Source of the DNA: Escherichia coli
GTDB taxonomy: Bacteria; Pseudomonadota; Gammaproteobacteria; Enterobacterales; Enterobacteriaceae
NCBI RefSeq assembly: GCF_003334765.1
Contig: NZ_QOWT01000059.1
Length of the DNA stretch: 9,740 bases
Reading direction: 5' to 3' (one strand)
Positions within the stretch are counted from its first letter, which is position 1, and each line of letters opens with the position of its first letter. The translations under genes and the position numbers were made by a program. Below, in pieces: positions 78 to 1,881 of this stretch. A model generated the notes under the pieces. It was given only the letters and a program-made list of their open reading frames with translations. It did no database searches and was not told the origin of the DNA.

Positions 78-990
<913 letters not shown>

Positions 991-1517
991 CAGACTACCT
1001 GAAGGGAGCCGCGGTCGCCTAGCAGTTGCAGTAGCAGGAGATCATCCAGCCGCAGTACAGGTCACGATGACTCTGGTTAATGATACCGGCTTTGACCCCG
1101 TATTTTCCGGCTCTATCGCTGAATCATGGCGTCAGCAGCCGTGCACACCATCCTATTGTTGTGACTGGGAGGCTGCCACCATGCTTCGCGCTTTCCCTCT
1201 GGCGAAAAAGGGAGAAGGACGGGCCCGTCTGCCTTCACTTTATGCCAGCTTCGGTAAGCTGGGTGAGACACCGACTCATAAAGATATCATTGATAACAAT
1301 CGATCCATCAACTGGCCTGTATAACGTGGCTGCCGGTGATTAAGAAAGCTGCACCTACCTAAGTAGTAGCAAACGCACACTTTTTAGAAAAATCGATGGT
1401 CAGAAACTGGATTAGCAATTCCGTTCCAGGGTTGCTTTTGATTTACGTTGGCGTCTGATCATTGATTTATCCTCAAAAGCCCAACCTCATTGGTAATGAA
1501 CCAGCTCCGTGAATGTC

Positions 1518-1543
1518 CGCTCTGGCACAGAGCGAAATTTTTT
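1518..1543 (+). terminator. Candidate intrinsic terminator-like hairpin in the IS911-fecE spacer
   Basis: Perfect 7-bp inverted repeat CGCTCTG (1518..1524) / CAGAGCG (1528..1534) with a 3-nt loop, followed by AAATTTTTT. The T-run is separated from the stem by three A, so this is atypical. Confidence 0.25.
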
Positions 1544-1796
1544 GATCTCCCCCCCTGAAATCTAAACTTAGTCATGTCACGTTTTTGGGTTTCTAAAATT
1601 TTAACTTCGCGTTTTTCGTTGCCGTAAGGGTTATACAGAAATGTCCGTTAAGCAGAGTTCAAAATTGATTGCCGTGATCACGACTGGTTTGAAAGCCGCG
1701 CCCAAGCCTGTACAGCTCTGGTTTGCGTTGATTATGAACCTGTCAGCCTAAAGCAAGCGGATGGACGATGAGTATTGGTAATCTTTCAGAGTCCGG

Positions 1797-1819
1797 AAAA
1801 GTTCAGCCCCAGTCTGAAC
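1797..1819 (-). terminator. Candidate weak terminator downstream of fecE
   Basis: On the minus strand, about 62 nt after the fecE stop: GTTCAG-ACTGGGG-CTGAAC (6-bp stem, 7-nt loop) followed by TTTT. Short stem and short U-run, so weak at best. Confidence 0.3.
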
Positions 1820-1881
1820 AGGCTTGCTGGCGCCAGTCCAGTTTCATTCAGTCGTGGTTTGGTTCTTACGGCCTGTGCAAT

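Follow-up and report, generated by a model that had tools for sequence, protein, structure and literature searches.

The spacer of about 0.9 kb that separates the IS911 remnant from fecE in an Escherichia coli fec locus is best explained as a junkyard junction, produced by successive mobile-element events beside fec, and not as a functional gene or RNA locus. We put the probability of this reading at roughly 85%. The spacer occupies positions 985 to 1881 of the window, by which we mean the entire 9,740-nt stretch of DNA that was analyzed. The identity and limits of each assigned piece could be demonstrated, and these assignments close an annotation gap at a very common E. coli locus. In the course of events that we propose, IS911 would have cut an NAD(P)-dependent oxidoreductase gene, with loss of the 5′ two-thirds that held the nucleotide-binding domain. 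The dead 3′ third (yjhV, 993-1324) would have remained together with its own downstream flank as far as 1508, where this flank would meet a putative degenerate boundary hairpin (1509-1571). From the hairpin onward, the proposed order is an 89-nt segment (1572-1660), a scrap of an ISNCY transposase gene (1661-1740) and the fecE flank (1726-1881), which overlaps the last 15 nt of the scrap. Most of the spacer probably does nothing. The T-run hairpins on the plus strand (1414-1436 and 1518-1543) may end transcription that leaves IS911 and yjhV in the direction of the convergent fecE, and 1726-1881 probably serves as the 3′ region of the fec mRNA and may act as its 3′ end. Two features are more than debris: conservation of the final 156 bases with fec exceeds the neutral rate, and the hairpin probably represents a boundary motif that recurs elsewhere.

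The window is an E. coli fec locus with 99.5% identity to K-12 MG1655 from position 198 on, and its spacer is ordinary and, as yjhV, partly annotated already in K-12. We found the spacer in 2,737 of the 5,426 complete E. coli genomes examined, about half of them, and it was at least 99% identical in 2,726 of the 2,740 matching records. It differs from K-12 by three bases and by the poly-C tract at 1549-1555, which has one C fewer in K-12. This tract, a length-variable homopolymer just past the hairpin, reads C7 in the window and C6 in K-12 MG1655.

A preliminary description of this DNA had noted an AT-rich segment at 1380-1700 and had considered a small RNA or regulatory region here. GC content is indeed lowered, to 0.39-0.46 over 1350-1650, but with 0.49-0.59 on either side the AT-richness is modest. 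The small-RNA suggestion found no backing in a scan of 800-2100 with Rfam 15 at E ≤ 1. The sole match was the plant microRNA family MIR169_8 (E = 0.37), whose 21.7 bits fall far below the gathering score of 107. Terminator-like sites numbered five in 900-2000 compared with 1.2 ± 1.1 in shuffled sequences, and a scan of the region for promoter-like sites gave one where 0.9 were expected. Within the AT-rich part, the 89 nt at 1572-1660, which we assign to neither strand, form a segment of no detected origin. No diverged homologue was found in plasmids (searched with 1325-1665), E. coli genomes (1500-1760), phages (1480-1760) or the fetched loci, and there was no Rfam match.

A truncated oxidoreductase gene beside IS911

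The spacer opens with the final 8 bases at the right end of IS911 (985-992, plus strand). The IS911 remnant, which spans about 78 to 992, had been thought to end at 984. Its actual end is 992, the base to which IS911B-1 is annotated in K-12, and homology to the Raoultella chromosome begins at 993. At the left edge of the window, positions 1-77 are an IS30 end inserted directly in IS911. Nissle 1917 shows this arrangement too, whereas in K-12 an additional IS600 fragment separates IS30 from IS911B-1.

Next to IS911 lies the 3′ third of a gene for an NAD(P)-binding oxidoreductase of the F420_oxidored type (993-1324, plus strand), which is the K-12 pseudogene yjhV (b4286). This assignment comes from tblastn, nucleotide identity to Raoultella, and the K-12 and PGAP annotations. 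The remnant keeps the last ~109 codons (about 139-248) and the stop codon of a 248-aa gene. In tblastn, the translation of 998-1324 was identical at 87 of 109 amino acids (80%) to residues 141-249 of WP_109651334.1, a 248-aa NAD(P)-binding protein encoded on a Pantoea agglomerans plasmid. The full Pantoea protein has its Pfam F420_oxidored/NAD_binding_2 Rossmann domain at residues 2-93, a part that is missing from the window. Homologues carry PF03807 and PF03446, and relatives appear in the databases as “predicted dinucleotide-binding enzyme,” “3-hydroxyisobutyrate dehydrogenase, partial” and “arogenate dehydrogenase.” The remnant is not a working member of this family, because it lacks residues 1 to ~138 and with them the N-terminal Rossmann dinucleotide-binding fold (GxGxxG). 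The 5′ half of the gene had no match in any of the 5,426 complete E. coli genomes.

When 993-1508 was compared with the chromosome of Raoultella terrigena (L008), we obtained one 520-nt alignment with 444 of 520 positions identical (85%); the Raoultella copy of the gene is itself frameshifted. Since this alignment runs past the stop codon to 1508, we regard 1325-1508 (plus strand) as the native 3′ flank of the truncated gene. A terminator scan placed a terminator-like hairpin in this flank at 1414-1436, followed by a T-run. In K-12, annotation ends with the yjhV stop codon, and nothing is annotated in the 556 bp that follow; the K-12 equivalent of window positions 1325-1661 is 4,510,134-4,510,470.

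Three open reading frames (ORFs) were listed for the spacer, and all are chance ORFs or pseudogene frames, in agreement with the earlier impression that none is convincing. The 137-aa ORF (911-1324) is the yjhV remnant read through from IS911, and the 87-aa ORF (1080-1343) is the +1 frame of the remnant. Both had been described as starting in the IS911 tail, which holds for the 137-aa ORF but not for the 87-aa ORF, whose start at 1080 lies outside IS911. The third, of 36 codons (1641-1751), is treated below. In addition, PGAP places a coding sequence at 1067-1324 (85 aa, WP_000177060.1) and names it either “hypothetical” or “NAD(P)-binding domain-containing protein”; this protein is the tail of the pseudogene. 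Three E. coli alleles related to 993-1343 (P0013, P0017 and P0036) switch between the pseudogene frame and the +1 frame of the 87-aa ORF. Frameshifts thus appear to accumulate in the remnant, as expected of a dead gene. The mentions of yjhV that we found in the literature concern other positions. With the K-12 pseudogene at 995-1324 and the PGAP coding sequence at 1067-1324, known elements account for at least part of the spacer, which had been described as the only part of the window that they leave unexplained. The suggestion of a decayed gene remnant is correct for most of it, namely to the truncated gene with its flank (993-1508) and to the transposase scrap (1661-1740).

The transposase scrap and the fecE flank

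The scrap at 1661-1740 (plus strand) is an internal fragment of an ISKpn21-like transposase gene of the ISNCY family, corresponding to codons 148-171. By blastn it was 80% identical over about 79-80 nt (1662-1740) to the ISKpn21 transposase gene in ~1,285 plasmid records (E = 6e-9), and by tblastn 17 of 24 amino acids were identical. The frame that starts at 1661 also matched the NCBIfam model NF033594 for ISNCY transposases (E = 2.6e-4). A diagonal identity profile limited the transposase homology to ~1660-1745, and neither further transposase similarity nor IS ends were found on either side of the scrap. An extension of the ISKpn21 homology to the left of 1660 was considered and rejected; at 32% against a background of ~24%, the diagonal identity there is suggestive only. 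The last ~10 nt of the scrap (CTACGTTGAT) survive in diverged fec loci, and therefore the fragment was joined to fec by the time of the ancestor that the E. coli module shares with the Salmonella/Klebsiella modules.

The remainder of the spacer (1726-1881, minus strand; K-12 4,510,534-4,510,689) is the non-coding 3′ flank of fecE, a probable 3′ untranslated region (UTR) that travels with fec. We compared it with five diverged fec loci, from Salmonella and K. variicola plasmids and three metagenome contigs, and in all five the homology to the window begins exactly at 1726 and runs into fecE. The flank is 77-80% identical in these loci. Their fecE genes are 77-78% identical overall and 51-55% identical at third codon positions, and because the flank exceeds the latter value, it is conserved well above this neutral proxy. 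No conserved ORF was found in 1726-1881 across the diverged loci. An ORF at 1768-1893 and short ORFs on the fec-sense strand were rejected as coding, since their starts and frames are not conserved. A fec-linked non-coding segment conserved well above the synonymous rate is a lead of possibly greater weight than the debris beside it.

In E. coli O55:H7 DEC5A (L012, 1733-3051), 1710-1881 is kept with fec and a different IS3-family element abuts at ~1710. The fec operon of this strain lies beside a tRNA-Leu gene and an integrase. In K. pneumoniae-type fec loci the flank is absent and an IS66 remnant stands in its place. The flank would therefore have been cut independently several times. Read in this way, the breakpoints serve to date events in the past of the fec module: the ISNCY scrap would have been on fecE before the E. 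coli and Salmonella/Klebsiella modules diverged, and since then IS911, the IS3-family element, IS66 and hairpin junctions would each have re-cut the flank. A scan of genome contigs with the fec-flank pattern TGAACCTGTCAGCCTNAAGCA gave two chance matches (Burkholderia and Granulicella) and missed true ones, for example in E. coli; the pattern is present in K-12 and also, to judge by a 100% match to the complete spacer, in the type strain of E. coli.

The hairpin at 1518-1543 and its probable relatives in mobile elements

As the preliminary description had reported, a perfect 7-bp hairpin with a T-run is present at 1518-1543. Its stem, CGCTCTG/CAGAGCG, occupies 1518-1534 around the loop GCA and is followed by AAATTTTTT to 1543; in K-12 the hairpin lies at 4,510,324-4,510,343. 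The stability is not unusual, with a folding energy of −10.8 kcal/mol and z = −1.26 (19 of 200 shuffled sequences fold as well).

This hairpin resembles a motif of prophages, islands and plasmids of enterobacteria, where it flanks variable cargo. Two related motifs were defined in this analysis, H1 as (AAYG)TCCGCTnTTGGCACA...CGGAC and H2 as GAGCGnnnnGCGGAC, that is, GGTCYGCTnnGAGCGnnnnGCGGAC; the stem GTCYGCT/AGCGGAC is common to both. Immediately after the end of the Raoultella homology at 1508, the window reads GTGAATG followed by TCCGCTCTGGCACAGAGCG, which looks like H1 with its usual AATG prefix in a degraded state (hairpin 1515-1538). This window copy, AATGTCCGCTCT-GGCACAGAGCGAAA, begins 7 nt after the homology ends, has one loop base deleted and has a degraded 3′ arm. 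Together with about 35 nt of right flank that include the poly-C tract at 1549-1555, it makes up a putative degenerate H1 boundary hairpin at 1509-1571 (plus strand). A 56-nt local alignment with an intergenic region of Klebsiella phage-plasmids was significant as a pairwise match, scoring 50 compared with 18.7 ± 2.3 for shuffled sequences, but had a database E-value of only 0.3. Because the Raoultella homology ends at 1508 and H1-like bases follow, the dead oxidoreductase gene looks like former cargo abutting an H1 boundary.

No partner H2 was found near window position 1516, and the sole match to the H2 pattern, at 9263, lies inside fecI. Half an H2 (GGTCTGCTAT) is present at 9617-9626, at the far end of the fec module and upstream of fecI, ~8 nt past the point (~9609) where homology to a diverged fec locus (L159) ends. 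An IS1 end follows the half H2 at 9664.

Outside the window, the H1 palindrome TCCGCTnTTGGCACAnnnCGGAC proved widespread in pattern scans of viral contigs (loci L013-L154). The left flank of H1 was always variable, and the right flank was one of several conserved backbone types. Lambdoid prophages and phage-plasmids were among these backbones, as were P2-like phages, in which the site directly follows the gene for tail-fibre assembly, and K-12 CP4-57, where it falls between yfjW and ypjI (L074, 2230 and 2541). Among 104 distinct H1 contexts, H2 was found on the same strand 0.44-3.7 kb upstream in 33 and downstream in 31, at +50 nt in 23 of the latter. No opposite-strand H2 was seen within 4 kb of H1 in any of the 104, and shuffled loci as a control gave four H2 matches in 1.36 Mb. 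We counted 42 distinct H2...H1 intervals in at least 16 backbone types; nine unrelated cargoes occurred in the P2-like type alone. Some of the cargoes have nuclease domains typical of defence genes, and the same cargo was not seen in two different backbones among the 42 cassettes. In P2 itself (NC_001895), H1 (TCCGCTnTTGGCACAnnGCGGAC) stands right after gene G at 15,335-15,358 and H2 at ~17,431-17,455, and together they bracket fun(Z).

The motifs also occur at fec. In diverged fec loci, H2 or an H1-H2 pair lies directly against the fec flank (L006/L007, 3917-3990), and one locus (L159, 5567-14336) has the order H1-H2, fec module, H2, 0.7 kb, H1-H2. On plasmids of the Klebsiella/Salmonella type, H1/H2 hairpins enclose the entire fec operon. 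Rfam gave nothing at the motif in six hairpin-carrying phage loci, and for the H1 and H2 sequences we found no K-12 annotation and nothing in the literature searched. To our knowledge, the hairpin does not fit a sigma-54 promoter, a Xer/dif site, the shufflon sfx site (with which it shares the GTGCCAA core only), REP or ERIC. The H1/H2 repeats may have been described by Nilsson et al. in 2004 (Mol Biol Evol 21:1-13).

Alternative readings and comparison with known systems

The preliminary description had proposed that the spacer would be simple decay debris if it aligned to an annotated pseudogene and neither the small ORF nor the hairpin were conserved, and this is essentially what we found. 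Against the debris reading count the 89 nt at 1572-1660 to which no origin was assigned, the surplus of terminator-like sites, and the conservation of the fec flank beyond that of neutral sites, which suggests a function for at least this part. That the 36-codon ORF (1641-1751, plus strand; K-12 4,510,449-4,510,559) or the 85-aa PGAP ORF (1067-1324) encodes a real small protein seems to us scarcely credible. Both ORFs are intact and identical or nearly so in thousands of genomes, the 36-codon ORF is present with the very peptide first reported for it, and the 85-aa ORF has its PGAP annotation. However, the frame of the 36-codon ORF (1641) differs from that of the transposase fragment over which it lies (1661), it has only a distant AGGG, and its product matched no family in a profile search. 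None of the diverged fec loci has its start or its first 28 codons, its stop is not kept in L007, it is not conserved outside E. coli, and the peptide was not found in the literature. We judge it to be a chance ORF over transposase debris, and the earlier suggestion of a small protein is not supported. The 85-aa ORF, in turn, is the tail of a 248-aa enzyme without the cofactor-binding domain; it starts at an internal Met (K-12 4,509,876), frameshifted alleles of it exist, and the K-12 curators annotate the region as a pseudogene. A second alternative, that the hairpin and T-run at 1518-1543 work as an intrinsic terminator or belong to a small RNA encoded in the AT-rich segment, is quite improbable, although several observations speak for it. 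The perfect stem has five G-C pairs and is followed by a T6 run, the hairpin passes a terminator consensus scan, terminator-like sites are enriched in the region, and the hairpin is oriented to meet transcription running out of IS911 and yjhV in the direction of the convergent fecE. Yet three A's stand between the stem and the T-run, leaving a 3-nt gap before the U-tract, and the hairpin is no more stable than shuffled sequences. Neither an Rfam family nor a promoter-like site upstream within the AT-rich part was found. In addition, the palindrome of the relatives usually has no T-run and the stem is lost in some variants, which points to conservation of the sequence and not of a terminator structure.

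A more far-reaching proposal reads the hairpin (1515-1538) and the half-hairpin (9617-9626) of the window as relics of a sequence-specific cassette-boundary system in which the hairpins are recombination sites. We consider this proposal unlikely; separately from it, the 156-nt flank may be a conserved regulatory 3′ UTR. If the hairpin proposal were true, paired and co-oriented H2...cargo...H1 units would bracket interchangeable accessory modules that moved between unrelated backbones. Their cargo would comprise the complete fec operon on plasmids of Klebsiella and Salmonella, fun(Z) of P2, nuclease-type defence genes of prophages and phage-plasmids, and the K-12 CP4-57 site. A recurrent hairpin pair placed exactly at the borders of variable cargo, in no fewer than 16 unrelated phage, island and plasmid backbones, could explain gene exchange at hotspots and is a second lead of possibly greater weight than the debris. 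Taken by itself, the idea that 1726-1881 is a functional RNA element of fec, either a 3′ UTR that serves mRNA 3′-end formation or stability or a small RNA derived from it, deserves tentative consideration. The excess of its identity over the third codon positions of fecE argues for such a role, as do its retention with fec in the five diverged loci and in O55:H7, the lack of a conserved ORF and a partly conserved hairpin at 1743-1761 on the fec-sense strand. Against it, the flank is wholly missing from K. pneumoniae-type fec loci, which have the IS66 remnant there, it folds no more stably than shuffled sequences (z = −0.45), and it has no canonical terminator. Covariation is uninformative, at 3 of 50 predicted pairs and about two effective lineages, and the best-conserved 26 nt include transposase-derived bases, which suggests history rather than function. 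A functional flank would complement, and would not replace, the reading of the remaining spacer as debris.

Several known systems resemble individual pieces of the junction. Like Rho-independent terminators, the window hairpin has a G+C-rich stem and then a T-run; unlike them, it has a 3-nt gap before the T-run and ordinary stability. Variable-locus hotspots have been described in P2-like phages (Rousset et al. 2022, PMC9122126). Set beside their Z/fun locus, the hairpin of the window looks like a copy of the first P2 hairpin that has lost one loop T and the GG of the 3′ arm, there is no partner hairpin nearby in the window, and its best match is a phage-plasmid variant and not the P2 one. The transposase scrap shares 80 nt with ISKpn21 at 80% identity to transposase codons 148-171, including the DHDWFEGRG stretch; of the 467 codons of the ISKpn21 gene, however, it keeps just 24, and it has neither terminal repeats nor an ORF. 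Members of the F420_oxidored family (PF03807) from Pantoea and Raoultella terrigena, which adjoin HxlR-type regulators, are 80% identical to the remnant over the C-terminal 109 residues, including the region of the CxxxCC motif; the window differs from them in that residues 1 to ~138 are missing. The closest counterpart is K-12 yjhV (b4286) in the KpLE2 region, which is the same DNA. Window positions 995-1324 correspond to K-12 4,509,804-4,510,133 with two substitutions, and the pseudogene sits in the same place, between IS911B-1 and fecE, with no material difference from the window.
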